Of a stretch of DNA of 64,000 nt, positions 34,190 through 53,757 are shown piece after piece. The notes under the pieces were generated by a model, which was not told the origin of the DNA, made no database searches, and was given only the letters and a program-made list of their open reading frames with translations. Position numbers and translations under genes: made by a program. The stretch is from Candidatus Omnitrophota bacterium. GTDB taxonomy: Bacteria; Omnitrophota; Gorgyraeia; Zapsychrales; Fredricksoniimonadaceae. Each line of letters opens with the position of its first letter. Within the stretch, counting starts at the first letter, position 1. The stretch spans positions 45,933 through 109,932 of the forward strand of contig CAJARJ010000018.1 of the NCBI GenBank assembly GCA_903944345.1. Reading direction: 5' to 3'.

Positions 34190-36331
34190 TCAAGGAAGCG
34201 CTTTTTTACCGCAACACCAACGATCTTGCCGGATAAAGGCCGTCATAAGCCCCAATTGCAGTAACGCACAAAACACCAGCGTGTCCGAACTCCCCCACAA
34301 AGGAACAAGCACAACCCCTCCCAAAACAAGCCCCAAAACCGATCCAAGAACATCTGCGGCATACAATTTTCCCGGCACAGCTCTCGAAGAAACCGCGACA
34401 GCAAATTGCCCCCCGCTGACAGCCCCTGCGCAAAACGAAAGAAGAAAAAGCCCGGACAGCGAAAACCAGCCAGCTCCGCAAACCGCCAGAAACGGCAAAA
34501 CAGCCGCTCCCGTAAACGACACCGCTGAAGCCAAGGCCAACATCTTCCACGACACCAGACTTTTTCGGTTCTCCGCCAGCCAGGCACCGGCACAAACACC
34601 TGCCAGAAAAACAGCCGTTATCAACCCGAACCAGGAATAGACATACCCGAACAATGCCTGAAAGAGAATCAACACCGACGACTTGATAATCATCAGTTGA
34701 AAACCCCCGGCTGTTGCCGTTACCAAGGGAAGTCTGAACCCGGACTTCAATCCGGGAAAAAATACAAAAAGAACCAGACACCACAACAGCAGCAAACCGT
34801 GCTCGGCCATCTGCATAAAGCGGGCAAACAAAGAATTAAAATGTGTCGACCAGAAAGACAACGAAGAGGCAAAAAGTACAGGACGAAGATCCTGATTAAT
34901 TTCTCCGGGGACAGCAAGCATTCGCTCCAATCCCCCCAGACGCAGACGGTCAAAACGCTCATCCCAGTATCCAGGCTTGACCCAGGATGTTTCAAGACCA
35001 CGCTCCCGCAGCCTTCTTTCAAGTACCCGAGGATCCAGGCTAACAGTTCCAGGCGAGCGCACCCCCAGAAACAAGGTTCTAGCCCCCGGAAGGAATCTGA
35101 CTTCTGGAAAAACCGCCTTCAAAGTGGCAAACAAAGACCGCAGAACTCGACGGCATTCCTCATTGATATAGTTTTCGGCTGAAGTCATGGTCAAGGCCAA
35201 AACTCCCCCCTCAGCCAGAGCCAGAGCGGCCTCTTCAAAGAATTCCCTGGTGTAGAAACGATTCTGCAAAAGCGTTAAAGGATCACCGGCATCCACAATA
35301 ATCACATCATACAATCCCCGGACTCGCTTCAGGTAAGCCCGGCCGTCCGTACGGAAGACCCGGAGACGAGGATTTTGTAAAACTTGCCTAACCAAAGGCA
35401 TTTCACGGGCCAGCAAAGCCACAGTTTGAATATCCATCTCGGTACAGTCAACAGCCATACCTGGATGCTTTAACGCTTCCCGTTCTCTTCCCGCCGCCAG
35501 CGTCCCGCCAAGAATAAGCAGCCGTTTTGGATCGGGATGAGCAAGCAAAGCATAATGCACGATCTCTTCCGCAGAGGCCGCATCTCCTGCCGAAGCAGAA
35601 AACCGGCCATCTTCAAAGAAACTCAAACTGCCATTACGCTCCAAAAGAAGGCTGCGACCATAAACCGTGTCTTTTTCTGCAACGATTCTAAAGCCTTTCC
35701 AGGAAGCTGCTCGAATAATAAAAGCTGTTTTTTCTCCAAGGCCAGCCAGAAAAAAGAACAACATCGCACCGCCAAGCGCAATTTTAAAAACCAGGACTCC
35801 CTCGCCTTTAAAATAAATAATCAAAGCAGGAAGACAGACCAATACCACAATATCCCAGCTGCGCATAAAGGGAAAGAAAAGAAACGTCGCCCCCACTCCG
35901 GCAAGAAAAAAACCCAGCGCTTCCTGCGCATACAAAGACATGACGCGCCCTTTAGCCTCTCTGGTCAAGGCTGAGAAAATTGCACCAAAAACAATGCTGG
36001 CGGGCAATACCAAAAAGAACGCAACCAAAACACTGATCAGTGGATCCGGGATCTGTCCAGGCACAAGCCCAAGACCCAAACGCACTGCAGAGGCCGCCAG
36101 CGCTATCAGCGGCGCCAGAACAGACACCAGCCCAAAAAGCAATGAAGCGGAACTTTTTAACCAGATACTGCCGCAAGCTATCCCCGCCATCCAGCCAGCA
36201 AGGCACAGCATATACACCAACTCATTGCCGCCGAAAGCGGCCATAAGTTCCCGCAAAACAAACAGCTGCAACAGGCATGAACAAAACCCCAGACAGAAAG
36301 CTTGTATCAACATCGCAGGGATCCTCATCAA
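34190..36331 (-). CDS. Spermidine-synthase-like (PABS domain) protein fused between N- and C-terminal polytopic membrane domains
   Basis: 713 aa. Central domain has an aminopropyltransferase-like fold (RLLILGGTLAAG..., VIIVDAGDPLTLLQNRFYTREFF). The Gly-rich dcSAM motif is degenerate (no GGGDG Asp). Confidence 0.55.
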   Translation of the reverse strand: MMRIPAMLIQAFCLGFCSCLLQLFVLRELMAAFGGNELVYMLCLAGWMAGIACGSIWLKSSASLLFGLVSVLAPLIALAASAVRLGLGLVPGQIPDPLISVLVAFFLVLPASIVFGAIFSALTREAKGRVMSLYAQEALGFFLAGVGATFLFFPFMRSWDIVVLVCLPALIIYFKGEGVLVFKIALGGAMLFFFLAGLGEKTAFIIRAASWKGFRIVAEKDTVYGRSLLLERNGSLSFFEDGRFSASAGDAASAEEIVHYALLAHPDPKRLLILGGTLAAGREREALKHPGMAVDCTEMDIQTVALLAREMPLVRQVLQNPRLRVFRTDGRAYLKRVRGLYDVIIVDAGDPLTLLQNRFYTREFFEEAALALAEGGVLALTMTSAENYINEECRRVLRSLFATLKAVFPEVRFLPGARTLFLGVRSPGTVSLDPRVLERRLRERGLETSWVKPGYWDERFDRLRLGGLERMLAVPGEINQDLRPVLFASSLSFWSTHFNSLFARFMQMAEHGLLLLWCLVLFVFFPGLKSGFRLPLVTATAGGFQLMIIKSSVLILFQALFGYVYSWFGLITAVFLAGVCAGAWLAENRKSLVSWKMLALASAVSFTGAAVLPFLAVCGAGWFSLSGLFLLSFCAGAVSGGQFAVAVSSRAVPGKLYAADVLGSVLGLVLGGVVLVPLWGSSDTLVFCALLQLGLMTAFIRQDRWCCGKKALP

Positions 36332-36411: not shown

Positions 36412-37092
36412 TTACTTGCCAATATTCTGCTTATTATAAAAATCCCAAAGAATCTTGGCGGCCAGATCTTTACCACCCAAACCAAAAGCAAGCCCCAGCG
36501 CAAGACAAAAAGCCGCAAAAAAGATCTGAAACGTCGTGCTGACAAAAAATGTAGAAATTCTCAACTGCTCAAATGTCATGACCGTTGTAAACAACAGAAT
36601 CGCTATCTTGGCAATCGAACCCAGCAACTCGGCACGCGAAACGTCAATATTTGAAGCTGCAGCCTTGATAATACTGTAAATAAGATTGGCAAAAAACATA
36701 CCGATCAAAGCCACAAAAACCGCGGCAATAACATTCGGAATAAACCCGGTGACTCTTTCCAGAAGGTGCGCCGCGACAACCAGCCCCATCGAATCAACCA
36801 CGACAGTAAACACCAGCAGCATCATCGCCCAATACACGAGGCCAGCCAGCAAAGAAGACGCCGAGAGCATCACTCCGCCCTTGGTGAGCATTGCAGAAAA
36901 CCCGATCTTGTCGGAAAAAGAATTAAACTTGACCTGATCAAGTAGTTTCTGTGCAAAACCGCTGAAAACTTTGGCAATAATCCAACCGAAAAGAAGGATC
37001 AGAAGCGCGCCAAATAGCTGGGGAACAAAAGCCCCAAGTTTGTTGAGCATCGTTACAATCGGCTCGATAAAAAGAATATCAATCCCCGCCAT
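36412..37092 (-). CDS. Small polytopic membrane protein (conserved TM-helix repeat, MscS-N-terminal-like)
   Basis: 226 aa made of about 5 hydrophobic helices with internal repeats. No catalytic motif. Confidence 0.4.
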   Translation of the reverse strand: MAGIDILFIEPIVTMLNKLGAFVPQLFGALLILLFGWIIAKVFSGFAQKLLDQVKFNSFSDKIGFSAMLTKGGVMLSASSLLAGLVYWAMMLLVFTVVVDSMGLVVAAHLLERVTGFIPNVIAAVFVALIGMFFANLIYSIIKAAASNIDVSRAELLGSIAKIAILLFTTVMTFEQLRISTFFVSTTFQIFFAAFCLALGLAFGLGGKDLAAKILWDFYNKQNIGK

Positions 37093-37249: not shown

Positions 37250-39079
37250 TCAATAGGGTGTCTTGAGTCGCCACCATTCGGAGAAGTCCGGAAGTAGCGG
37301 TCGAAAAATGGAGTTAACCAGCCGCGAATTTTTCCGTGCAATCAACTGGTTACCAGCAAGCAGTGCCGCCCTGACCCGGGAGGAGTTGACAATATCCGGC
37401 GTAACACCCTGACCATAAAACATATCCGGGGTACCTGCACCTTGCGCACGAGCCAGAATGAAACCGGAAGAAAGATTCTGCAAAAAATCCCGCAACATTT
37501 CCCTGGCAACGGCCTCGCCGCCTCTGATCTGCATAGAACTTGTTTGTCCGGTCAACATGTTGGTGTCGGTCCGGGTTATGATATCAACACCCGTGTAAAG
37601 TTTTCGAAACAATGCCAGCGCCCGGGGATTATCATCCTCAAGCGCGGAAAAGAATGGCCGAATATCCCCAAAACCGGCAGCAAACAAGGTGTTATAGAGA
37701 ATATCCCATGTCCGAGTATCTTTGCCTGGCTCCTCCTGCCGGGGGATCTGCTCAAGCCCGGGAACATCCATAACCAGAAAGCCTTCGGCCGAAAGCCGCG
37801 CCCGCGCCATGGCATAAAACTCACGCGAATAAAGGCGGCTAAGGTTGTAATCGCTTGGAGCCGGAAAATCCAGATAAATGGCATCAAAGAACTCGCGTGA
37901 CTGGCGTACATAATAAAAAGCATCGTCAATAACCACCTGCACCCGGGGATCCTCAAAAGCCCCTTGGGTCAAAGAGCCCGGCCCGGAAGCGGAACGGAAC
38001 AAGTCAACCACCTTCCTGTCGATCTCAACTAAAATGATCTTGCGGACGGAAGAATACTTGAGCAATTCCCGAATCAGAAGGCCGTCACCGCCCCCCAGAA
38101 CAAGAACAGACTCCGGAACACGAACCGAGATTGCCATAGGAACATGCGCAAAGAATTCATGGTAAAATTTCTCAACATCAGAAAGAAACTGAAAATCATG
38201 CCCAAGATACAAAGCTAACCCGTGCGGACGAACCTTCCTGCCAGCTTTGCCGTTACTATAAATATCCAGCAAGTCATCCGGATAACCGGCGGCCGAGCGA
38301 ATACTCACCAAATCAATAGACTGATACGGACTGCGAACCCGCTGCACTTGCGCCAGAAAGGCACTCTCATCAGGAAGGGCATAAAAGCGGCGCAAGAAAT
38401 ACTGTTCAAATCTTCCGGCGCCGGCAAGCGTCAAAAAAATCAGAATCGCTGCCAGAGCAGACCAAAGTAGCTGCCCCGCCCCCCTGACCGGTTTGACCCA
38501 CCACAAAACAACGGCAGCCATAAGATTAACGACAGCAATTAATCCGGCAATCTGCAATAACCCGAACCTAGGCAACAAAAACAGCGGGAAAATCAATCCT
38601 GCGGACAGCGAGCCCAGATAATCCATGCCCAGAACCCGAACCAGAAGATTTCTGCCAGGAACCGCCTCCACAGCCATATCCAGAAGAAGAGGCAATTCGA
38701 TCCCCGCCAAAAAACCGACGGCAGACGAAAGCACAAGCGCGCTGAAAAAAAACAGGACGTCCGCAGCAATAACCTGATCCCCGGACAAAAAGGACAAAGC
38801 GCCCGACTGGGCTGCATGCAGAAGAAGAACAGATCCTCCTCCCACCAGGCTCAAAACAATTTCCACCCGAAATAGCCTGAGTTCCAGCGGAGCGTTTTTG
38901 AAAAATCTTCCGCCTGACCAGGCCCCTGCCCCCATGCTCCCGACAAAAACCCCCACCGCCAGACTCACCCAAACCAGCTGGTTAGCCGTAAAAACCGCAA
39001 CCGTCTGGGCAAGCACCAGCTCATAAACAAGCGCACACGCCGCCAGGACAAACGACAAAAGATATATAACAAACATCAT
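37250..39079 (-). CDS. Membrane-fused spermidine-synthase-like aminopropyltransferase (N-terminal about 7-TM domain + PABS domain + C-terminal soluble domain)
   Basis: VLVLGGGDGLLIRELLKY (dcSAM-binding GGGDG), VEID, and IYLDFPAPSDYNLSRLYSREFY (the DSSDP-equivalent). Translationally coupled to speH (ATGA overlap). Confidence 0.65.
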   Translation of the reverse strand: MMFVIYLLSFVLAACALVYELVLAQTVAVFTANQLVWVSLAVGVFVGSMGAGAWSGGRFFKNAPLELRLFRVEIVLSLVGGGSVLLLHAAQSGALSFLSGDQVIAADVLFFFSALVLSSAVGFLAGIELPLLLDMAVEAVPGRNLLVRVLGMDYLGSLSAGLIFPLFLLPRFGLLQIAGLIAVVNLMAAVVLWWVKPVRGAGQLLWSALAAILIFLTLAGAGRFEQYFLRRFYALPDESAFLAQVQRVRSPYQSIDLVSIRSAAGYPDDLLDIYSNGKAGRKVRPHGLALYLGHDFQFLSDVEKFYHEFFAHVPMAISVRVPESVLVLGGGDGLLIRELLKYSSVRKIILVEIDRKVVDLFRSASGPGSLTQGAFEDPRVQVVIDDAFYYVRQSREFFDAIYLDFPAPSDYNLSRLYSREFYAMARARLSAEGFLVMDVPGLEQIPRQEEPGKDTRTWDILYNTLFAAGFGDIRPFFSALEDDNPRALALFRKLYTGVDIITRTDTNMLTGQTSSMQIRGGEAVAREMLRDFLQNLSSGFILARAQGAGTPDMFYGQGVTPDIVNSSRVRAALLAGNQLIARKNSRLVNSIFRPLLPDFSEWWRLKTPY

Positions 39080-39435
39080 TCGTCAAAGCCCCTGGACATC
39101 ACACTAACCTCTGCTTTACGGGCCAAAAGCCCCTGCTTAAGAAAATCAATCGCCCTCTCGGGAAACATGGTTCCGCAGGTCAAAACATCAAAAGCCGCAT
39201 AACCGTCCTGGGGCCATGTATGAATAGAGAAATGTGATTCAGCAATAAAAATCATCGCACTGACACCCTGCGGCTCAAACTGATGGAAATGGGATCCAAG
39301 AATAGTGGCGCCGCTGTCACGGGCGGCCTGCAGAAAAAGAGGACGCAAAACTTCAACCCTGGCCAGGGGCTCCGGATCACAACCGGTAAACTCGACAAGA
39401 TAGTGTCTGCCAAATTCATGTTTTCTGGATTTCAT
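39076..39435 (-). CDS. speH: S-adenosylmethionine decarboxylase proenzyme, class 1b (SpeH)
   Basis: 119 aa with the FIAESHFSIHTWPQDGYAAFDVLTCG self-processing site (ES/H). Confidence 0.8.
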   Translation of the reverse strand: MKSRKHEFGRHYLVEFTGCDPEPLARVEVLRPLFLQAARDSGATILGSHFHQFEPQGVSAMIFIAESHFSIHTWPQDGYAAFDVLTCGTMFPERAIDFLKQGLLARKAEVSVMSRGFDE

Positions 39436-40244
39436 AACGCCTCTTCATGAAGATATAAACGAACACAGACCTCCTGGATTCGCCCGGACCAAGCCAGCCC
39501 GGCCAACGTCAGAAGCAGCAGCAGTGCCGCGCCACGCAAATACACTCTCGCCTTAACCCCGAACTCAGGTCGCCAAACCAGAACCAGAAAAAGCGCCCCC
39601 GCCGCATTGCACGTTGCGACCGCCATCAGAGAAGGCACAAGTCCGGATAAAGGATAAAGACAGAAAACATATAACAAAGTTCCGGCAAAAGCCCCGAGAT
39701 AATCAAAAGCGATCAGCCGGTTACGATCGGACTTTAAATCACTTGCGCCCAATGCAAGAAGCAGCGGCAACTCAAACCCGGTCAGAAAACCAATCAAAAC
39801 AACAAGCATGTGCGCCCAAAACAAAAGAAATCCGGATGGAAAATTCAACGCATCCAGAAGAAAAAGACCCGGAACAGCCGAAACACCAAACAAAATCAGC
39901 AATGTTTCAACCTTAAACAGAAGCCGCCAGGGTCTTTTGACAACATAACGTTCAGCCGCAAAAGCCCCTACACCCATAAAACACATATAGAGACCGATTG
40001 TCACGCTGTAACGCAGAACGGTATTGGCAAAAAACGCGGAAAGAACCTGGGCCAGCAACAACTCGTAAGCCATACTGCATAACGCCAGAACAAACTTGAG
40101 AAAAAGCAATGGCCGGAGCCGTCCTGCGGTTAAACCTGCAGAATCGACTCCGGCCTTATATGGCGTCTGCCGGAAAATCAAGCTTTCTCCTGAATCACCC
40201 GCATCAGCTGCCGGGCCGCTTCTTCCGGACCCTTTCTCTCCCAA
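39432..40244 (-). CDS. Polytopic membrane protein paralogous to the N-terminal TM domain of the SpeE-like fusions
   Basis: YELLLAQVLSAFFANTVLRYSVTIGLYMCFMGVGAF parallels the 609-aa protein's YELVLAQTVAVFTANQLVWVSLAVGVFVGSMGAGAW. 4-nt overlap with speH. Confidence 0.5.
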   Translation of the reverse strand: MGEKGSGRSGPAADAGDSGESLIFRQTPYKAGVDSAGLTAGRLRPLLFLKFVLALCSMAYELLLAQVLSAFFANTVLRYSVTIGLYMCFMGVGAFAAERYVVKRPWRLLFKVETLLILFGVSAVPGLFLLDALNFPSGFLLFWAHMLVVLIGFLTGFELPLLLALGASDLKSDRNRLIAFDYLGAFAGTLLYVFCLYPLSGLVPSLMAVATCNAAGALFLVLVWRPEFGVKARVYLRGAALLLLLTLAGLAWSGRIQEVCVRLYLHEEAL

Positions 40245-41926
40245 CCGGCCAGTCCCAGACGAGTACGCATCTGACCGACATAAACTCCCTGCCTGAAGAA
40301 GTGCTCAAAATAATCTTTCGCCAAAGGATCGTGCAAATGCTTGTACTGGGCAGGACCAAAAACATTGGAGAAATAAGAATGCACCAGCCCCGTCGCCGTA
40401 GTTGTGCCCTTGCTCATGGCGGTGCCTTCACGAAAAACGTTAAGCGCAGCCTCCGGTGTCTTGAAGCGCTCGACAATCGGATGATCGTCATCAGTGGCAT
40501 CATAATTATTTGCATAAAAAACAAAATCAATCTTCTCACCCTTGATAACCTGCTGATACGAGGTAACCGGAATAATGATCCTGGCATTCACCTGATTGGC
40601 CGACATGATAATCGCACGGTCAATCTGGCCGAGCGCATATCCAGGCTGCAAATCGTCGAGGCGCAGAAACGCCCCGATCTCGGTGCCGTAACCCAGCACC
40701 CGCCCGTCGGGGGCAAGCTGGATCGAACCCATGTCATCCGCAACAATAATCAGATCCTGGATATGATCCTCACCCAGTCCGCGCAAAGCCTCAAGCGTTT
40801 CAGACTTTCCGGCACCGGTATCTCCGATAAAAAGCAACGTACGGTCGATATCCCCTTTCAGAATAATCCGTACCAGCGCGCCATGAAAGGGCATAATCCC
40901 GCGCTTCATCATGATAACGTTATGCAGGGTCAGGACCATCTTTTTGACATATCCGAAATAACCGAACTCGGGACGAAACGGAACCGCACCAACAAGGAGA
41001 TTATTCTTTTCGTCATCAAAGAAAACCTGTTCACAGTTAAAGCGTGCCAGGCTCTCGGGAGGAACTCCGTAGGCATACACACCATCCGGTTGACGCTCCA
41101 GATCCTCGTCTCCGGCAATCTCGAAAAGATTGCATAAAGAATGACCCAGCTCGGCAAAACGGTTATGAAAATAAACCATAATCAGCAGCTCTCCGACTTT
41201 GGCCGGATAACAAAGCCAGTCGTTAGAGTCGAAGCTCAGCCCCTTGATCGGGCTCTCATTAACCCTCTCGGCACGACCAGTCCGCTTGTTCATCGGTGGC
41301 GTCAGAATGAGCGGAGGGTACAAGAGCATCTGCCGGATCATGGGCACATTGTTCAATTCGGCATACTCCTGCGGCAGCTTAACCTCCCTGGGTACCGATA
41401 TGGTGGACACCTCGGCTCCCGCCGCAACCTGACGATAAATACGAGGGTGCTGTCCGGTTACATTCTCCTGGATGTCCCGATACATCTGACGAATAAGATT
41501 AGTCAACTGACCAATCGTCTCGTTAAATGTGCGATACGGGCGCTTGTCCCAGTTCTTGTCCTGCCCGCCGGAAATGATAAAACGGTCAAAACTGCGCCAA
41601 AAATTGTAAATACTTTCGATCAACTCATTAAACAATGTGGGATCCTGCAGAAAGACATCCGATCCTTTCACAATATTAGGAACCAGACTGGCCGGCATCT
41701 TGGTCAGATACTTGATAGTCTGGATAAGCCGGTCGATATCTCCTGTGTCGGCATCTTTCTTGCCGAAGACCTGCATCAGAATAGAACGACGTTTGGCCAG
41801 TTTGCCAACGGCAGCAGTTACAATTCCCTTGAAAAGCTCGCTATCGATAATCTCTTCTTCGGTCTCACAAATCCTGTTCTGGATACGCAGAATAATTTTC
41901 GTATCGTATATGTCATAAGACTGCAT
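40178..41926 (-). CDS. Uncharacterised 582-aa protein with an HPr kinase/phosphorylase-like P-loop domain
   Basis: HGALVRIILKGDIDRTLLFIGDTGAGKSETLEALRGLGEDHIQDLIIVADD (aa about 348-398) closely mirrors the HprK/P Walker-A region (GDSGVGKSETALELI..GH.LVADD). The N-terminal about 330 aa are unassigned. Confidence 0.6.
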   Translation of the reverse strand: MQSYDIYDTKIILRIQNRICETEEEIIDSELFKGIVTAAVGKLAKRRSILMQVFGKKDADTGDIDRLIQTIKYLTKMPASLVPNIVKGSDVFLQDPTLFNELIESIYNFWRSFDRFIISGGQDKNWDKRPYRTFNETIGQLTNLIRQMYRDIQENVTGQHPRIYRQVAAGAEVSTISVPREVKLPQEYAELNNVPMIRQMLLYPPLILTPPMNKRTGRAERVNESPIKGLSFDSNDWLCYPAKVGELLIMVYFHNRFAELGHSLCNLFEIAGDEDLERQPDGVYAYGVPPESLARFNCEQVFFDDEKNNLLVGAVPFRPEFGYFGYVKKMVLTLHNVIMMKRGIMPFHGALVRIILKGDIDRTLLFIGDTGAGKSETLEALRGLGEDHIQDLIIVADDMGSIQLAPDGRVLGYGTEIGAFLRLDDLQPGYALGQIDRAIIMSANQVNARIIIPVTSYQQVIKGEKIDFVFYANNYDATDDDHPIVERFKTPEAALNVFREGTAMSKGTTTATGLVHSYFSNVFGPAQYKHLHDPLAKDYFEHFFRQGVYVGQMRTRLGLAGWERKGPEEAARQLMRVIQEKA

Positions 41927-41950
41927 TTAACACCTTCCTCCTGTTGTTTT

Positions 41951-42607
41951 TCAGTGCGCAAACTTCTTGTGAAGCCATATTCTGTCAACGGCCCGCTTGA
42001 ATGCCATATTGATCGGGAGCATTTCCCGCGATAAATCCGGATCAATACTGCTCAATCTCAAAACATAATCGGACATAAAAACGGGCTTATCCTCAGTGCC
42101 TTCCGGCTTCTGAATGCCCGGCGCTGCCAACGGCAAAATTTTATCCTTTAGAACAGAACAGGACGCCAGCCGAAAATGTCCATGCCGGTCCCGATTTCCG
42201 GAAAAACCGAACAGCCGGCAAATCAGCGGACGCGAAGCATACTGCAAACACTTGCCTTGCCCCGAGGACCCTGCCTCAGGAAAAAAGAAAATGCACCGTC
42301 CCTGAAAATCCTGCTTGTCGGCTTTTTCGTAAAAGCCCTCGGCCTGCCGAAGACGATCAAGCTGCGATGCCAAAGGAAGCAGCTCAAGCTCGGAAGCCTG
42401 AACATGCGGATTCTGACAGCAAACCCCGCAACCCACAGGACAGGAAAAGGCCAAACTGCGCCTGAACGCTCCCGTATCCCGGTCTACGTCAAGAAACAAA
42501 TACTGCACCGCAATAATCTTGCGGCGCAAAACATCCCCATGGGAAGTTCTGTATCGCTCCAACAACAAAAGGCAACGCTTTTTCCAGCGGGCTAAAGTTG
42601 TTTGCAT
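41951..42607 (-). CDS. YkgJ/UPF0153 family Cys-cluster (putative Zn/Fe-S binding) protein
   Basis: CPVGCGVCCQNPHV (CxxCxxCC), plus a second Cys cluster. Ends 25 nt before the HprK-like gene. Confidence 0.7.
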   Translation of the reverse strand: MQTTLARWKKRCLLLLERYRTSHGDVLRRKIIAVQYLFLDVDRDTGAFRRSLAFSCPVGCGVCCQNPHVQASELELLPLASQLDRLRQAEGFYEKADKQDFQGRCIFFFPEAGSSGQGKCLQYASRPLICRLFGFSGNRDRHGHFRLASCSVLKDKILPLAAPGIQKPEGTEDKPVFMSDYVLRLSSIDPDLSREMLPINMAFKRAVDRIWLHKKFAH

Positions 42608-44904: not shown

Positions 44905-45666
44905 TCAAGTTTCACTCTGCAAGAAACTGCGAGGATCAAAAAAAGCTGACAAAACATGCTTCTTGCCGCCCAGACCGGGGATCTTGCGAATCACAAAACC
45001 GCGGTCGGTCAGACCTCGCCGGACAAAACCCGCAACAGTAAACGTTGTCAGGGTTGTCCCCTTCCGACTTAAAGCGGCTACTCCGTCAAAAACATGATCC
45101 GACCACATTTCAGGATTTTTGGAAGGAGCAAAACCGTCCAGAAGAACCACGTCCACCCCCTCCGGTGCCAATCCTGCGGTCTTAACCAGCGACAATGCCT
45201 CTTGCACATGCCGGAAAACAACTGTCAGAGTCACCCGATCCTCATCAAAAAGAAAAGACTTTATTTGTCCGGGCGAGGGAGTATATTGCGCTGCCAGCGC
45301 TGCGGCCTGCGGAGCCAGCACCGGCCAAAAAGCCAGTGCCCGTGTCAGATGCTCAACGGCCAAAGGATAAAGTTCCACTGAAATAAAATGTAACCGCCAG
45401 GAACGGGGAGCTGTCTCCCGCCACAACTGCCAGACACTACAAAAATCCAGCCCGGTCCCGAAACCTGTTTCCAGAATCGTAAAAGTTCCTCCCTCCGCGG
45501 AGCTCAAAGCCAGAAAACGTTCGCGCAAAGCATTGGACTGACAACACACATAAACAGATTCGTCATAACCACTTGAACGACAGAAATACTTGTCGCCAAA
45601 AGCGGTAGACTGGGGCATCCCCTGCTCGTCCCAGACAATATCAGCAAGCGAATCGGCAAGGCTCAT
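44905..45666 (-). CDS. tRNA mnm5s2U34 biosynthesis methyltransferase domain protein (MnmC C-terminal-domain-like / MnmD)
   Basis: ILETGFGTGLDF motif and DUF752-like SAM-MTase architecture. No FAD oxidase domain. Confidence 0.6.
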   Translation of the reverse strand: MSLADSLADIVWDEQGMPQSTAFGDKYFCRSSGYDESVYVCCQSNALRERFLALSSAEGGTFTILETGFGTGLDFCSVWQLWRETAPRSWRLHFISVELYPLAVEHLTRALAFWPVLAPQAAALAAQYTPSPGQIKSFLFDEDRVTLTVVFRHVQEALSLVKTAGLAPEGVDVVLLDGFAPSKNPEMWSDHVFDGVAALSRKGTTLTTFTVAGFVRRGLTDRGFVIRKIPGLGGKKHVLSAFFDPRSFLQSET

Positions 45667-46565
45667 GGCTCTCCGTCATTTGCAACTGTCAGCGTCAGCT
45701 CCATTGCAACCGAGCCCATACTGCCACGGGTCGAATGGACTGCACCCAAAGTCACTTTGCCCATATCCAGACCCAAAGACAAAAGAGCCTCGTGAACTAC
45801 TTTAGCGCGCTCCGTTGCCAGAGACGACATGGCAGCATGATCAGCAGGGGCGCTTTCAATCAATTGGCGCCTGATTTCCGTAATAAAAGCATTCTCCTGG
45901 TACTGGCCAGGACGATTCTTGTACTTCCTGGCCAATGACCAAAGACCACGAATCCCGAAACTGCGCTGATACAACATCTGGTAAAGCTGACTTTCCGTAC
46001 GCGAAGAACCCGCCCTGAGTTGCGCATAATTTCCTGCCAACGCTTGCGCTGCCAATGCCTTCCAGTCCATATCAGGATCGAAAGCCCCTTTAATCTCAAG
46101 CTTTAAAGCAGGACGCTGTTCCATGCCCCGCACCAGAGTTGCAAGTTTTTGCCGCTCGGCATCCGTCAATACCGCCTGCCCGGGCTGAAAACGCACGTAA
46201 CCAAGCTCGTCAGTTCCACTCTCCGAACCAAGAACAGAACCCAAAAAAGCAAAAGGACTGCTCACGACCTTGAAAAAGAAATTACGGATCACCTGTCCAA
46301 CCAACGGCCAGAAACGAAATTGCGGATCACTCAAATCCCCCGTAACCGGGAGAGCCACCTTAATTTGCCCATTAGCATCCTCCAAAAGTGCCAATGCCAA
46401 ACCAAAAGGTAACCCCAGCATCTTTGCTTTGAGTCCGGCGGCCAAAGGTAAAATTCTGAACCAGCAGGCGATGATCAGCCGAAAGCTGATTGCCGGCAAT
46501 ACGATAATCCATCCGTAAATCAAACTTGCCATCATCCAGTTCCCGCCCGGTATATTTACCGACAT
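45663..46565 (-). CDS. DUF748 (AsmA-like) protein, C-terminal fragment (frameshifted gene?)
   Basis: LPFGLALALLEDANGQIKVALPVTGDLSDPQF is the conserved DUF748 core. Overlaps the upstream fragment by 194 nt in another frame. Confidence 0.5.
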   Translation of the reverse strand: MSVNIPGGNWMMASLIYGWIIVLPAISFRLIIACWFRILPLAAGLKAKMLGLPFGLALALLEDANGQIKVALPVTGDLSDPQFRFWPLVGQVIRNFFFKVVSSPFAFLGSVLGSESGTDELGYVRFQPGQAVLTDAERQKLATLVRGMEQRPALKLEIKGAFDPDMDWKALAAQALAGNYAQLRAGSSRTESQLYQMLYQRSFGIRGLWSLARKYKNRPGQYQENAFITEIRRQLIESAPADHAAMSSLATERAKVVHEALLSLGLDMGKVTLGAVHSTRGSMGSVAMELTLTVANDGEP

Positions 46566-47355
46566 ACGGCGAAAGCACCGTCAGCACGTAACTGCCCAGA
46601 ACACAGCTCATCTCCAGTTCCGGGGGCGATTGCAAAGGTTTAAGCCGGGCCTCCAGATTCACAGTGCCCCGCCCATCCAGAGTCCCTTCCACAAATACCC
46701 CGGTCCACACACCCGGATCTGTTGAGAAACCGGTCACCCGAATCAGAAGTCCACCCAGATTTGTAACAAGCCGGGGAGAAACTGTTTCATCTGTAAACCC
46801 CAAACGAGCTTCGCGGACAATCAAACTATCTACAAATACGGGGGGAAAGGATGCCTTCCGGGAAGAGGAATCTGCCGGAGTATCCACCGCGGCGGAAGCC
46901 TTCGGCGCCGGAAAGGATGCCACAAAATCCAAAAGATTAAAACGACCCTCCGCAGACAAGCGGGCATCAACCTCAAGACCGTCGAGCACAACAGACTCGA
47001 CACGTAAATTCTTTTTTAACAATGCCAGAAAACTGACATCCAGGCTGGCCGCACGTAAAAAGAACAATGGCTCCCCTTGGGTATCCCTGAGCTCAACACC
47101 ACGGACACCTATGCTGAACATATAAGGGTTCACCCAAACGGCGGACACAGCAAGCTTGCGTTTTAACAACTTGCTTCCCTGGGCTTCAACTGCCCAGCGG
47201 AGCATAAACGGCAGAACAATAAAACCGAGGATCGTATAAACACAAACAACTATCCCGAAAAACTTCAGTACCTGAACAAGGCTCCGGATCCCTGACGGAC
47301 GTGCAATTTTCTGCATAGAAATCTTCCCGAAAAACTTTTCTTTTTGCGATGACAA
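46372..47355 (-). CDS. DUF748 (AsmA-like) protein, N-terminal fragment
   Basis: N-terminal TM anchor followed by AsmA-like beta-rich repeats. The reading frame terminates inside the conserved core and continues in the 45663..46565 ORF. Confidence 0.5.
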   Translation of the reverse strand: MSSQKEKFFGKISMQKIARPSGIRSLVQVLKFFGIVVCVYTILGFIVLPFMLRWAVEAQGSKLLKRKLAVSAVWVNPYMFSIGVRGVELRDTQGEPLFFLRAASLDVSFLALLKKNLRVESVVLDGLEVDARLSAEGRFNLLDFVASFPAPKASAAVDTPADSSSRKASFPPVFVDSLIVREARLGFTDETVSPRLVTNLGGLLIRVTGFSTDPGVWTGVFVEGTLDGRGTVNLEARLKPLQSPPELEMSCVLGSYVLTVLSPYVGKYTGRELDDGKFDLRMDYRIAGNQLSADHRLLVQNFTFGRRTQSKDAGVTFWFGIGTFGGC

Positions 47356-47382
47356 CGCCGATTAACACATCTTGATATCTCA

Positions 47383-49652: not shown

Positions 49653-51188
49653 TCAGACCGCTCCGGCATTCCCTGTTACAATATATTCGACCGGATTGTA
49701 ACTGTCCGTGAAAACTGGACTCCCTTCCAGACTATAATCTTGCGGCGGCACCCGGGTAGCAAGCAATGCCTGAAGGCCGCCGGGGGGTTCTATGCGGAGA
49801 AAATCATCATAAGTTCCCATGCGCATACCAGCCACAATAATAATATTCTGCAAATCCCCGGGATTCTGTCGATTGGTGGCGTAAACATCAACTCGCCCGA
49901 AAACCTCAGACAGAGTTCGGGTTATGGCGCGAAAGAATCGCGCTCTGTCTCCTTCAATGGCACTAATAATATTCATCATGTAAATACCATCCGGAGTCAA
50001 TCTCTGGCGTACCAGATCAAAAAACTCTTTTGTGACCAGATGAAACGGAACATTGTGCTTGCCATGGAAAACATCTCCAAAAACAAGATCATACTGGCCG
50101 TTATCTGAACGCAAATAGCGCCGCGCATCTTCTGCAGCAATCTTCATATGCGGATAGTCCCCGGTACGAAAAAAAATCTTGCCTGCTTCGATCACCTGCG
50201 GATCAATCTCGCAGACCTCCACTTGGGCACCGGGATAAGCCCGGCTCAACGCCTGCGGCATGGTAAAAGCGCCTCCACCAAGAAAAAGTGCCCTTTGCAT
50301 CCGCGGACAATAAAGCCGACTCAATTCCCAGTACCGGTTATACACCAGCGGACTTTCGGGCGAATGCTCGAAGCGCGCCCCCGCTGTAGAATTATCCGTA
50401 TTAATTGTCGTCACAAAATCTCCATTAGCCAGTTCCGGCCCCCGGAACACAACTATGCGGTGAAAGAATGTGATCTTGTGAAAGAGAATATGCCACGGCA
50501 TTGGCGGATTTTTCCTGGCAACCCATCCTGCCAGGAGCAAGGCAAGAAATATAACCGCCACAGGCACCGCCAGGTTCAGTGGTTTTCTAAGAGCGACTCC
50601 ATAAACCGCTGCTGCCATGCACGCCAGGACAATCCCGCTTCCCAAAAAGATCGTCCACAAATCAAAACGTGGAATAAGCAGAAAGCCGGTGGCAAAAGTC
50701 CCGGCGACACTCCCCAGCATGGAAAGCGTACCCACTATCCCGGATGATATTCCAACATGCCGATCCGCGGACAATAAACTGACCAGGCGCACACAAAAAG
50801 GAGGCACCGCACCGAGAAGAAAGCCAGGCAAAGCAAAAAACATACCTGCCGCCACAGCAGGACCCCAAACAGCACTGGTTCCAGACAAAAAAAGATCAGC
50901 AGAAAGATGCAAAAAAGGAACTATCAGAACAAAAACAGCCGCCAACCCAAGAATATGCCCCAGCAAAACAGGGGTGGGCTTGCGGTCAACCAGCCATCCA
51001 CCGTAACAATAACCTGCACTCATCGCAGTCAGAATGACTCCGATCAGTCCGGTCCAGGTATAGAGACTATTGCCAAAAACAGGAGCCAGAATGCGGTTAC
51101 CCGTCAACTCAATGACCATAACAATCGCCCCAGAGAAAAAGGCAATCACAGACAATAAAAGAGCTTCCGTCCAGGCTGAACTTTTCAT
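49653..51188 (-). CDS. Membrane-fused spermidine-synthase-like protein (third paralog; N-terminal about 7-TM + PABS-like domain)
   Basis: ALFLGGGAFTMP...VEVCEID...YDLVFGDVF...HLVTKEFF is a diverged aminopropyltransferase-like domain following a polytopic TM domain. Confidence 0.55.
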   Translation of the reverse strand: MKSSAWTEALLLSVIAFFSGAIVMVIELTGNRILAPVFGNSLYTWTGLIGVILTAMSAGYCYGGWLVDRKPTPVLLGHILGLAAVFVLIVPFLHLSADLFLSGTSAVWGPAVAAGMFFALPGFLLGAVPPFCVRLVSLLSADRHVGISSGIVGTLSMLGSVAGTFATGFLLIPRFDLWTIFLGSGIVLACMAAAVYGVALRKPLNLAVPVAVIFLALLLAGWVARKNPPMPWHILFHKITFFHRIVVFRGPELANGDFVTTINTDNSTAGARFEHSPESPLVYNRYWELSRLYCPRMQRALFLGGGAFTMPQALSRAYPGAQVEVCEIDPQVIEAGKIFFRTGDYPHMKIAAEDARRYLRSDNGQYDLVFGDVFHGKHNVPFHLVTKEFFDLVRQRLTPDGIYMMNIISAIEGDRARFFRAITRTLSEVFGRVDVYATNRQNPGDLQNIIIVAGMRMGTYDDFLRIEPPGGLQALLATRVPPQDYSLEGSPVFTDSYNPVEYIVTGNAGAV

Positions 51189-51369: not shown

Positions 51370-52806
51370 ATGCTTTTTAACTCCACACAATTTTTTCTTT
51401 TCATTCTTATTGTCTACGGACTTTACCTCATCTTGTCCCATCGTTGGCAAAACAGAATGCTCCTGGCCGCCAGTTGCATCTTTTATGGCGCATGGGATGT
51501 CCGTTTCTTGCTGCTCATGTTTATTTCCATAACCGCAGACTATCTGTGCGGCCCCCGAATCTATTACGCCAAAGACAGGCAAACCGCAAAACTCTTTCTT
51601 TCTATCGCTCTCACTGTTAATCTGGTTATCCTTCTTTTTTTCAAATACTGCAATTTTTTTGTCTCCAATCTCACTTCTCTCCTGAGCTATTGCGGCCTGA
51701 CAGTTAACCCCTACACCCTCGACATTGTGCTCCCGATCGGAATCTCCTTTTACACGTTCCAGGCCATGAGCTATTCGTTCGACCTCTACCGCAGGGAAGT
51801 CATCCCTCCCGCCAGATATCTGGACTACGCTCTTTTTGTCACCTATTTTCCTCAACTCGTAGCCGGCCCGATCATGAAAGCCAGGGATCTGCTGCCACAG
51901 GTACTCAAAGAAAGAACTGTCACTGTAGAAAAATTTAAAGAAGGGTGTTTCTGGATTCTCTGGGGCTTTTTCCAAAAAGTCTATGTTGCCGACAATCTGG
52001 CCGGAATTGTAGAACCCGTCTTTTCTGCCACCAGCCCCCGGGACGGACTGACGGTGCTGCTGGCCGTATACGCTTTCGCCTTCCAGATTTATTGTGATTT
52101 CGCCGGTTACTCGAACATTGCCAAAGGCCTGGGAAAAATCATGGGCTTTGATATTATCACCAACTTTAACTTGCCCTATTTTGCCACCAATCCTGTCGAG
52201 TTCTGGAAAAGATGGCACATCAGCCTGTCTTCCTGGCTACGCGATTATTTATATATTCCCCTGGGAGGGAACCGTCAGGGACGCCTGCGTATGTTTCGCA
52301 ACCTGGGGCTAACCATGCTGATCGGGGGGTTGTGGCACGGAGCGTCGTGGACCTTTGTTTTATGGGGAGCCTACCAGGGGGCGCTGCTGATTGCCTACCG
52401 CGCCGGAGAACCGCTCTGGCATAAATTCCGTTCACTAACCGGAAGACTCTCCCTGCCTTCAGGCCTGCTTTATGCAGCCAAGCTGTTTTTCTTTTTCCAC
52501 CTGATCTGCCTGGGTTGGCTCGTGTTCCGGGCTCAATCCTTTGAACAAATTTTTGTTATGCTAAGAAGTATTCTAACCGGATTTCTGCCTGTCAATCAAC
52601 AAGCTGCATGGCAAACAGCCGCAGCCATTTTGCAGTTTACGTGGTTCCTGGTGCTTATCGAAATCATGCAGTATCATCTTGATGACCTGAAATTCATTCT
52701 GCGGCAAAGCCCTCTGGTCAAGGCAGGCTTTAGTTACATATGTTTTCTCCTGCTCATTTTCTACGGAGCAGAAGGAACCCGGCAATTTATTTATTTTCAG
52801 TTCTAG
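51370..52806 (+). CDS. MBOAT-family membrane-bound O-acyltransferase (AlgI/DltB-like)
   Basis: 478 aa, about 10 TM helices, with the MBOAT conserved His region ([23 protein letters not shown]...GGLWHGASW). Confidence 0.85.
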   Translation: [478 protein letters not shown]

Positions 52807-52812
52807 AAAACC

Positions 52813-53757
52813 ATGAAGAACCTCGCCAAATCCTTTCTGATCTATGTTTTCCCGATCCTGCTTCTGGTGCTCTGGATTGAAACGGGGTTGCTTGCGGTCC
52901 GAAACAGCTATTCCCAAAAAAAAATCCTTCTTGAGCAGCATCTGGCGGAACATGAAGTCCTCATCCTGGGCAACTCTCTGCCCTGGCACGGAATCAACCC
53001 GGGCCTGATCAGTGCCCGGGCATTCAATCTCTCTATGGTCAGCCAGTCTCTTTTCTACGATCTGCAGTTTATTGCCCGGTATACCCCGCGAATGCCCGCG
53101 CTCAAGGCAGTGGTTCTTTGTGTAGATTATACGTCTCTTGAAGACGATATAAACCTCTCTCCCGAGTACTGGCGGAGCTTCTTTTACGAACGTTTCTTCG
53201 GATTTCCACTGGAGTCCGAAAAGTTCGCCTGGGACATCATGCGCTTTAGTTTAATCAAGCTTTATGGCGGCGACGAAACACTTCGCCTGGCCAGAAATCT
53301 TTTCCGGGACCATCTTGACTATGAGCAGCTGGAAAACGGCTTCGCCCCCAGGATCAATCCGGGATATCTCACCAATGAATCCGAGGCCCGCAAACGCGTA
53401 AACTTCCTGCACACCTGCATGAACTCGTCTGCTATCCCACGCAACAGCGCCCACCTCCGGGAGATCATAAGGCTGCTGCGCGCCAAAGGAGTCATTCCCG
53501 TGTTAGTTTCATTGCCGGTCTCTTCGGGGTATACCCTTGCGCTCGATCAGAAGAAACTTCAAAAGATGCAGGAAACCATTCAAACAATTGCCACCGAATC
53601 AGGAATTAGCTATCACAATTACATGTTCGATCAACGCTTTGCTACAGAAGACTTTTTTGATGCAGACCACCTGGCGGTGAATGGCGCCATACACTTTACC
53701 AATATCCTGAATCTGGAAGTCATTAAACCCCTGCTGAAGACAACTAACCCGGATTAG
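52813..53757 (+). CDS. DltD/AlgJ-like periplasmic partner of the MBOAT acyltransferase (SGNH-like)
   Basis: N-terminal TM anchor. Immediately downstream of the MBOAT gene (6-nt gap). Size and position match DltD/AlgJ/AlgX-type partners. Confidence 0.55.
   Translation: MKNLAKSFLIYVFPILLLVLWIETGLLAVRNSYSQKKILLEQHLAEHEVLILGNSLPWHGINPGLISARAFNLSMVSQSLFYDLQFIARYTPRMPALKAVVLCVDYTSLEDDINLSPEYWRSFFYERFFGFPLESEKFAWDIMRFSLIKLYGGDETLRLARNLFRDHLDYEQLENGFAPRINPGYLTNESEARKRVNFLHTCMNSSAIPRNSAHLREIIRLLRAKGVIPVLVSLPVSSGYTLALDQKKLQKMQETIQTIATESGISYHNYMFDQRFATEDFFDADHLAVNGAIHFTNILNLEVIKPLLKTTNPD

Follow-up and report, generated by a model that had tools for sequence, protein, structure and literature searches.

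A conserved three-gene cassette pairing a predicted S-adenosylmethionine decarboxylase with a membrane-fused aminopropyltransferase-like protein and its free-standing membrane paralog in Candidatus Omnitrophota

In thousands of bacteria, a gene for an S-adenosylmethionine (SAM) decarboxylase adjoins a gene for a membrane-fused spermidine synthase-like protein; related fusions are reported not to make spermidine or spermine, and what such enzymes aminopropylate is a real question. A PSP comparative-genomics study (PMC11237479) places operons of SAM decarboxylase (AdoMetDC) and a seven-transmembrane (7TM) spermidine synthase (SpdSyn)-like protein also with DUF350, DUF4178 and PspA/CesT, and suggests, with reference to Li et al. 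2019, that other substrates are aminopropylated. A second source (PMC12803844) describes bacterial homologs of membrane-APT-like fusions as experimentally uninvolved in spermidine or spermine synthesis, citing the same work. The general idea of an AdoMetDC acting with a membrane SpdSyn-like fusion on a non-canonical substrate is thus already published. Here we analyse 64,000 nucleotides (nt) from Candidatus Omnitrophota (GCA_903944345.1, contig CAJARJ010000018.1, 45,933 to 109,932, forward strand), referred to as the window, a placement that agrees with the best homolog matches; all coordinates are window positions unless a locus is named. The locus studied, 37250-42607, carries five co-directional minus-strand open reading frames (ORFs), as a first-pass annotation of the DNA had reported, and the many homologs found for all five genes by homology search rule out chance ORFs. 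That annotation had proposed an undescribed system of five genes. "Undescribed" is an overstatement, AdoMetDC and 7TM-SpdSyn-like clusters being in the literature already; the part that is new relative to it is a three-gene variant with a stand-alone membrane paralog, of which we could not find a description.

A three-gene cassette and the published clusters

The conserved unit consists of three genes, encoding (i) a protein of ~225 amino acids (aa) made of transmembrane (TM) helices, here called TM-only, (ii) SpeH and (iii) a 7TM-aminopropyltransferase fusion of 590-640 aa, which has 609 aa in the window. Profile searches were run with Pfam and NCBIfam and scored against the curated cut-offs. 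The parts of the cassette are the following:

39432..40181 (-), ORF 39432-40244: TM-only protein, 7 TM helices; PRK03612 positions 21-229 (4e-32), no Pfam domain
39076..39435 (-): SpeH, predicted class 1b pyruvoyl SAM decarboxylase; Pfam AdoMet_dc 122 bits against a cut-off of 25, TIGR03330 equivalog 123.9 against 75.65
37250-39079 (-): 609-aa fusion, whole; 7 TM helices and Spermine_synth, 101.9 bits against 22.9
38381..39079 (-): membrane domain of the fusion, residues 1-233; 7 TM helices and an amphipathic helix, predicted half of a major facilitator superfamily (MFS) fold
37445..38350 (-): aminopropyltransferase domain of the fusion, about residues 244-545
37250..37444 (-): C-terminal tail of the fusion, about residues 546-609, with the stop codon; subfamily-specific

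Read from the sequence, the TM-only/SpeH and SpeH/fusion junctions are both ATGA overlaps. The domain calls of the first-pass annotation for SpeH and the fusion, and for the YkgJ gene that opens the locus, agree with matches above cut-off (AdoMet_dc, TIGR03330, Spermine_synth and PF03692).

Full-length homologs of the 609-aa fusion (590-640 aa) are found in metagenome-assembled genomes (MAGs) and genomes labelled Omnitrophota, Patescibacteria, Luminiphilus, Pseudomonadales, Bdellovibrionales and Myxococcales. The order TM-only, AdoMet_dc, fusion is kept in Omnitrophota (the window and loci L018 and L023), in the Gammaproteobacteria Luminiphilus (L019; sequenced genome CP179213.1) and Pseudomonadales (L021), in Verrucomicrobiales (L104) and in the metagenome loci L024, L026, L028 and L029. 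Variants of this order occur: TM-only adjoins a fusion lacking SpeH in L020 (Patescibacteria), L030, L032 and L033, L034 has SpeH first and then TM-only and the fusion, and in L022 (Bdellovibrionales) SpeH is adjacent while TM-only lies ~2.7 kb upstream. TM-only adjoins the fusion in 16 further loci. The genes flanking the cassette vary from phylum to phylum, and no separate TM-only gene is present in any of the 69 remaining loci with shorter, ~520-aa-type fusions (L035-L103). The tight coupling of SpeH to a membrane-embedded aminopropyltransferase, as read by the first-pass annotation, is supported, and this linkage recurs.

Two members of the set carry additional genes. In L028 (4890-9686) two 609-type fusions stand in tandem after TM-only and SpeH, so that the catalytic component is duplicated. 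Directly upstream of the Luminiphilus cassette (L019, 4014-5930) lies a gene for a 638-aa polytopic membrane protein, the C-terminal domain of which looks SpdSyn/methyltransferase-like by eye (…GMIGLGIGT…VLDAFSSD…) and has no Pfam hit.

The published clusters share with this locus a class 1b AdoMetDC linked to a fusion of ~7 TM helices with a GGGDG-bearing SpdSyn-like domain, and for them, too, a non-polyamine or non-canonical role has been proposed. Their DUF350-type fusions are homologous to the 609-aa fusion in both membrane and catalytic domains, at about 30% identity over residues 1-480. The two types differ in several respects: DUF350-type fusions keep DFPDP and have no separate TM-only gene, whereas the 609-type has lost the second Asp and has the TM-only paralog; the 609-type is longer (590-640 aa) and has a conserved C-terminal tail, compared with ~520 aa for the published type; and the published type sometimes carries PspA/CesT, whereas the window-type cassette has no PspA. 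DUF350 and DUF4178 are both absent from the window region and from the annotated flanks of L018-L023 and L104, and both present in L050, a locus of the published type with AdoMet_dc, DUF4178, DUF350, a 518-aa fusion and an amine oxidase. Clusters of AdoMet_dc, DUF4178 (zinc ribbons), DUF350, fusion and a flavin amine oxidase are found in L050 (2191-9213) and in many of the loci L035-L103, and for many other ~520-aa fusions a SpeH homolog lies some 2.7 kb upstream. The amine oxidase beside the ~520-aa fusions is a hint at an oxidisable amine as their product or substrate.

SpeH of the window is, as judged by its profile matches and residues, a class 1b AdoMetDC and the predicted supplier of decarboxylated SAM (dcSAM), with a small doubt. 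It matches the T. maritima AdoMetDC (1tlu/1vr7) with an E value of 6e-28, keeps the ESH processing site, HTWP and TCG, and has equivalents of the self-processing Ser (S63) and of His68 and Cys83 of T. maritima; the roles of this Ser, His and Cys in AdoMetDC are those given in PMC10407285. The central region, ESHFSIHTWPQDGYAAFDVLTCG, differs very little from that of the T. maritima enzyme. According to the same paper, a proline separates AdoMetDC from the derived arginine decarboxylases; we take the Pro of HTWP, which is kept in SpeH, to be presumably this residue.

Catalytic and membrane domains

In canonical SpeE, the Asp of GGGDG binds the aminopropyl amine and an acidic residue the ribose, and the site further includes the Asp of a DG/DA motif and a catalytic Asp. 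An alignment of 40 members of the fusion family shows G329, G331, D332, G333, D354, D386 and D404 to be invariant, in agreement with the earlier description of an intact dcSAM site. The YQ hairpin, YHE, GGGDG, D354, D386 and D404, which serve dcSAM binding or catalysis in canonical enzymes, are all invariant in the family. The catalytic domain was also aligned to its best structure and sequence matches, 1uir and 7xif. The second Asp of DxxDP, the diamine anchor, is lost: the window fusion reads DFPAP, and the motif of the 609-type subfamily is DFPxP or DFPY[AV], with A, Y, S, V, N, M, T, I or F at the position of the second Asp, whereas almost all of the shorter ~520-aa relatives keep DFPDP or DLPDP. 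Since this Asp is lost across the subfamily, the acceptor is probably non-canonical, that is, not putrescine bound in the canonical way.

The canonical cytoplasmic SpeE enzymes (T. thermophilus 1uir, E. coli 3o4f, human 9q41) differ from the fusion by the 7TM domain and by DxxDP in place of DFPxP, and the fusion falls below every NCBIfam SpeE equivalog cut-off. It also scores 280.2 against a cut-off of 472 for PRK03612, a membrane-fused model of 522 positions that NCBIfam names "polyamine aminopropyltransferase". The C-terminal tail is found in the members of 590-640 aa and includes the invariant residues N589 and P594; the ~520-aa DUF350-type matches stop at about residue 440-480.

The structural model of the fusion (predicted local distance difference test score, pLDDT, 86.9; predicted template modelling score, pTM, 0.86) contains seven TM helices, an amphipathic helix and the catalytic domain, and the modelled membrane domain has the six-helix bundle fold of MFS type. 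TM-only aligns colinearly with fusion residues 1-225. Its family comprises 168 matches with a sharply defined length of 225-227 aa and no Pfam domain. Between 116 TM-only proteins and 115 fusion membrane domains, the positions Y19/E20, Q25, N33, E73, E128/P130, Y154 and N185 are near-invariant and common to both; the sole systematic difference is W37 in the fusion, where TM-only has Arg. By sequence, TM-only is a free-standing paralog of the fusion membrane domain, and since the same polar positions are near-invariant in both, we take it to be a constrained functional partner and not a decayed copy. MFS transporters carry two bundles, or 12 TM helices; the cassette proteins differ in carrying one half (7 TM) per chain and in having no Pfam MFS match, and a separate gene apparently provides the second half. 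A literature search on natural half-size or split MFS proteins returned no relevant matches.

Proposed function and competing explanations

We favour, at chances a little better than even, the reading that the three-gene cassette encodes a split half-MFS heterodimer that couples aminopropyl transfer to the movement of a cationic amine other than putrescine. SpeH would make dcSAM in the cytoplasm, and the half-MFS domain of the 609-aa fusion would hold the aminopropyltransferase domain at the cytoplasmic face, where it would transfer the aminopropyl group to an amine acceptor. The half-MFS domains of TM-only and fusion may pair into a heterodimeric, MFS-like cation pathway lined by the conserved glutamates; this pathway could either deliver the acceptor to the catalytic domain or export the aminopropylated product, and synthesis and translocation would then be coupled. 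A bolder version, which we regard as possible and rather doubtful, is that natural half-size MFS units, one of them bearing the aminopropyltransferase, assemble as a heterodimeric transporter and that an aminopropylated amine is made and exported, or imported and modified, in one step.

Several points weigh against the coupled heterodimer. A half-MFS fold, here taken from a model, is no proof of transport, and the membrane domain could be a mere anchor or a lipid binder; the pairing of the two membrane domains is something that we infer. One 609-type locus (L025) has neither TM-only nor SpeH within 4.6 kb upstream of the fusion. The study by Li, Kurihara, Kim, Liang and Michael (2019, Biochem J 476:2579) reportedly concerns DUF350-type relatives and not the 609-type subfamily. 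Finally, if TM-only starts at a TTG that overlaps the stop of the preceding gene, which encodes a 582-aa protein of the phosphoenolpyruvate carboxykinase (PEPCK) type, there may be local translational coupling with that gene in this genome and its three closest relatives.

If the heterodimeric half-MFS transporter is real, it would provide the first function for a large class of membrane "spermidine synthase-like" enzymes, and an extant representative of the split ancestor from which MFS transporters have long been proposed to derive. The three-gene variant is the simplest form seen, with no other conserved partner, and its presence in the sequenced Luminiphilus genome makes the product directly testable by heterologous expression. 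Two concrete hypotheses open to mutation, a heterodimeric cation pathway and a non-putrescine acceptor, follow from the half-MFS fold, the conserved partner paralog and the change in the acceptor motif. A membrane-associated or exported non-canonical acceptor had already been suggested by the first-pass annotation; with the acceptor motif altered, and in agreement with PMC12803844 and PMC11237479, this is reasonable, and it holds as a reading only.

An ordinary membrane-anchored polyamine synthase, in which SpeH and the fusion would make bulk spermidine or another common polyamine and the membrane domains would serve as anchors or regulators, is unlikely in our estimate. The name of the nearest model, PRK03612, the retention of all dcSAM-site residues and the catalytic Asp, and the identity of 1uir and 7xif as broad-specificity thermophile enzymes speak for such a synthase; yet the PRK03612 score lies far under its cut-off, the second Asp of DxxDP is gone across the subfamily, related bacterial membrane fusions are reported in PMC12803844 to be uninvolved in spermidine or spermine synthesis, and a mere anchor would need no second, strongly conserved membrane paralog with the same invariant intramembrane Glu. 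We consider it improbable that the acceptor belongs to the membrane or envelope (an amino-lipid head group, a lipid-linked glycan or a peptidoglycan precursor), with half-MFS domains that bind or flip lipid. Such an acceptor would suit an enzyme integral to the membrane, the envelope-rich Omnitrophota neighbourhood (Wzy_C, MBOAT, an MscS-like TM protein and DUF748), the acyltransferase near the L020 cassette, UbiA and a glycosyltransferase near L023, and the lipid and choline carriers SPNS2 and FLVCR among the top MFS matches. No envelope partner is conserved, however, as the flanks differ in every phylum, and the three glutamates that are invariant within the membrane are at least as compatible with a soluble, cationic substrate. 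Hardly any weight falls on the proposal that the SpeH homolog has been neofunctionalised into a pyruvoyl decarboxylase of ornithine or arginine (SpeDC/SpeDA) and supplies the amine acceptor, not dcSAM. PMC10407285 describes SpeD homologs that decarboxylate ornithine or arginine as widespread, with ornithine decarboxylases among those of Omnitrophota; it also describes the ornithine decarboxylase group as the one most divergent from AdoMetDC, whereas the central region of SpeH is close to the T. maritima enzyme, the presumed diagnostic Pro is kept, the TIGR03330 match is well above its cut-off, and the partner domain keeps the dcSAM-specific Asp of GGGDG.

The five-gene arrangement itself could be the functional system, with the 582-aa P-loop protein, of HprK/PEPCK-like type, and YkgJ acting together with SpeH and the membrane aminopropyltransferase; this we regard as very improbable. 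The genes are co-directional and tightly spaced, the near-identical contigs L014-L017 have the identical layout (L014 is 88% identical to the window across the five-gene region), and the 582-aa and TM-only genes may overlap. The 582-aa/TM-only junction is TTGA and not ATGA, and the start of TM-only is uncertain: (i) a TTG at 40181 gives 249 aa, with an N-terminal extension that is kept in the three closest relatives, and (ii) a TTG at 40109 gives 225 aa and a 68-nt gap, which fits the 225-227 aa of the wider family. The YkgJ/582-aa junction is a 24-nt gap that contains an AGGAGG ribosome-binding site. The first-pass annotation had described ATGA overlaps or gaps under 25 nt throughout; this is correct for the two junctions inside the cassette and for YkgJ/582-aa, and incorrect for 582-aa/TM-only. 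It had also named conservation of the five-gene neighbourhood as a test of its operon, and comparison across loci leads us to reject the five genes as a unit. The 582-aa family occurs in at least five phyla without a cassette gene nearby, with SpeH or a 609-type fusion within 8 kb of the 582-aa homolog in none of 13 genome loci. Conversely, neither the 582-aa nor the YkgJ gene accompanies the cassette in Gammaproteobacteria, Verrucomicrobiota, Bdellovibrionota and Patescibacteria, and among 17 further loci with 609-type or closely related fusions only L018 has either gene nearby. YkgJ adjoins the 582-aa homolog only in close Omnitrophota relatives (L001-L003, L018 and L014-L017). The order in L002 is Dabb, Wzy, YkgJ, the 582-aa gene, PMSR, one ORF, an Msc-like gene and a homolog of a 713-aa gene described below, and the cassette trio is absent; in L018 it is a genuine PEPCK gene, YkgJ, the 582-aa gene, PMSR, an ABC ATPase, the trio, the Msc-like gene and a 652-aa homolog of the 713-aa gene. 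With no trio in L002, and PMSR and ABC genes separating it from the 582-aa gene in L018, the adjacency in the window is a derived local arrangement. The 582-aa and YkgJ genes are housekeeping bystanders, placed beside the cassette by lineage-specific gene order.

Neighbouring genes and other features of the window

The two genes upstream of the cassette are the following:

41951..42607 (-): YkgJ-type CxxCxxCC protein; PF03692, 34 bits against a cut-off of 23
40178..41926 (-): 582-aa protein, apparently a divergent member of the PEPCK superfamily, with a helical, globin-like N-terminal domain; PEPCK_ATP match sub-threshold

The first-pass annotation had called the 582-aa protein HprK-like, a label that does not hold: it has neither a match to an HprK family hidden Markov model (HMM) nor the two-domain HprK architecture. 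It differs from the ATP-, GTP- and PPi-dependent PEPCKs and from HprK in that its matches lie far below the family cut-offs (16.8 against 26.5 for PEPCK_ATP; NCBIfam PEPCK scores of at most 24 against cut-offs of at least 369) and in its extra helical, globin-like N-terminal domain. The PEPCK fold and catalytic motifs are nevertheless present. In a profile alignment to the genuine PEPCK of L018, PEPCK motifs pair with invariants of the 582-aa family, namely Y323-x-G-x-x-K328-K329, H348, the P-loop G368-DTGAGK374-S375, D397-D398 and N447-x-R449. On these motifs, the protein is best described as a divergent enzyme of the PEPCK superfamily that stands nearer to PEPCK than HprK does. The genuine PEPCK_ATP gene lies two genes upstream of the 582-aa homolog in L018, so the 582-aa protein is not the PEPCK of the cell. 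Some members of the family carry the NCBI label "phosphoenolpyruvate carboxykinase", despite the genuine PEPCK also present in L018.

The 582-aa family comprises more than 6000 sequence clusters without a Pfam domain. Identity is 58-75% inside Omnitrophota, and homologs that are 46-52% identical occur in MAGs labelled Anaerolineae, Scalindua, Woesearchaeota, Iainarchaeota and Patescibacteria and in the complete Pelolinea submarina genome, a spread over Chloroflexota, anammox bacteria, CPR and DPANN in which the gene context always differs. Its neighbours are unrelated in 10 of the 13 genome loci, with YkgJ upstream only in the three closest (74% identity); elsewhere they include a flavodoxin-like protein, GH57, an ABC ATPase, a Na/H exchanger, an aminotransferase, chorismate synthase and a PLP enzyme. 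We tried to assign a function from the neighbours in other phyla and rejected this approach, as no partner is conserved. A literature search on PEPCK-like families yielded nothing relevant to the 582-aa protein. The comparison clears this PEPCK-like protein of a polyamine role and draws attention to its family, which is very large, highly conserved and, as a group of enzymes, uncharacterised.

Two further membrane proteins with SpdSyn-like domains are encoded near the locus, and the fusion is not, as had been claimed, the only candidate of this kind; neither of the two has the GGGDG Asp. The 713-aa protein (34190-36331, -) scores 46.5 on the NCBIfam fused MFS/spermidine synthase model NF037959 (cut-off 40), carries its SpdSyn-like domain between two membrane domains and also lacks the conserved Glu residues; its homolog in L018 has GGAAT in place of GGGDG. 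The NF037959 family shares with the cassette the combination of a SpdSyn-like domain with polytopic membrane domains, whereas the 609-aa fusion scores 20.9 against the same model. Compared with the TM-only profile by hhalign, the N-terminal membrane domain of the 713-aa protein gives an E value of 1.4e-4 and the C-terminal one 0.013, both weak. We considered a "Rosetta-stone" argument from this protein and set it aside as suggestive only, given the weak similarity to TM-only. The 713-aa gene is preceded by a gene for a 226-aa protein of MscS-type TM helices (36412-37092, -), and the pair is kept in L002 and L018. The second protein, of 511 aa (49653-51188, -), is a membrane-fused SpdSyn-like protein with a weak Spermine_synth match and GGGAFT in place of GGGDG; its gene is divergent from an MBOAT acyltransferase gene (51370-52806, +) and a gene for a 314-aa protein (52813-53757, +). 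Together with the fusion, three membrane SpdSyn-like genes lie in one region of the window.

A promoter and terminator scan of the locus gave counts little above those of shuffled controls and did not resolve transcription units, and base composition shows no GC anomaly over the cassette. GC skew is negative in all 2-kb bins of the window (1-64000; -0.06 to -0.22), and nearly all long ORFs between 33 and 47 kb are on the minus strand. A DUF748 gene (45663-47357, -) is broken up into overlapping ORFs of 327 and 300 aa, compared with a single 564-aa ORF in L014; a 2-nt gap near 46417 points to a frameshift, either a pseudogene or an assembly error.

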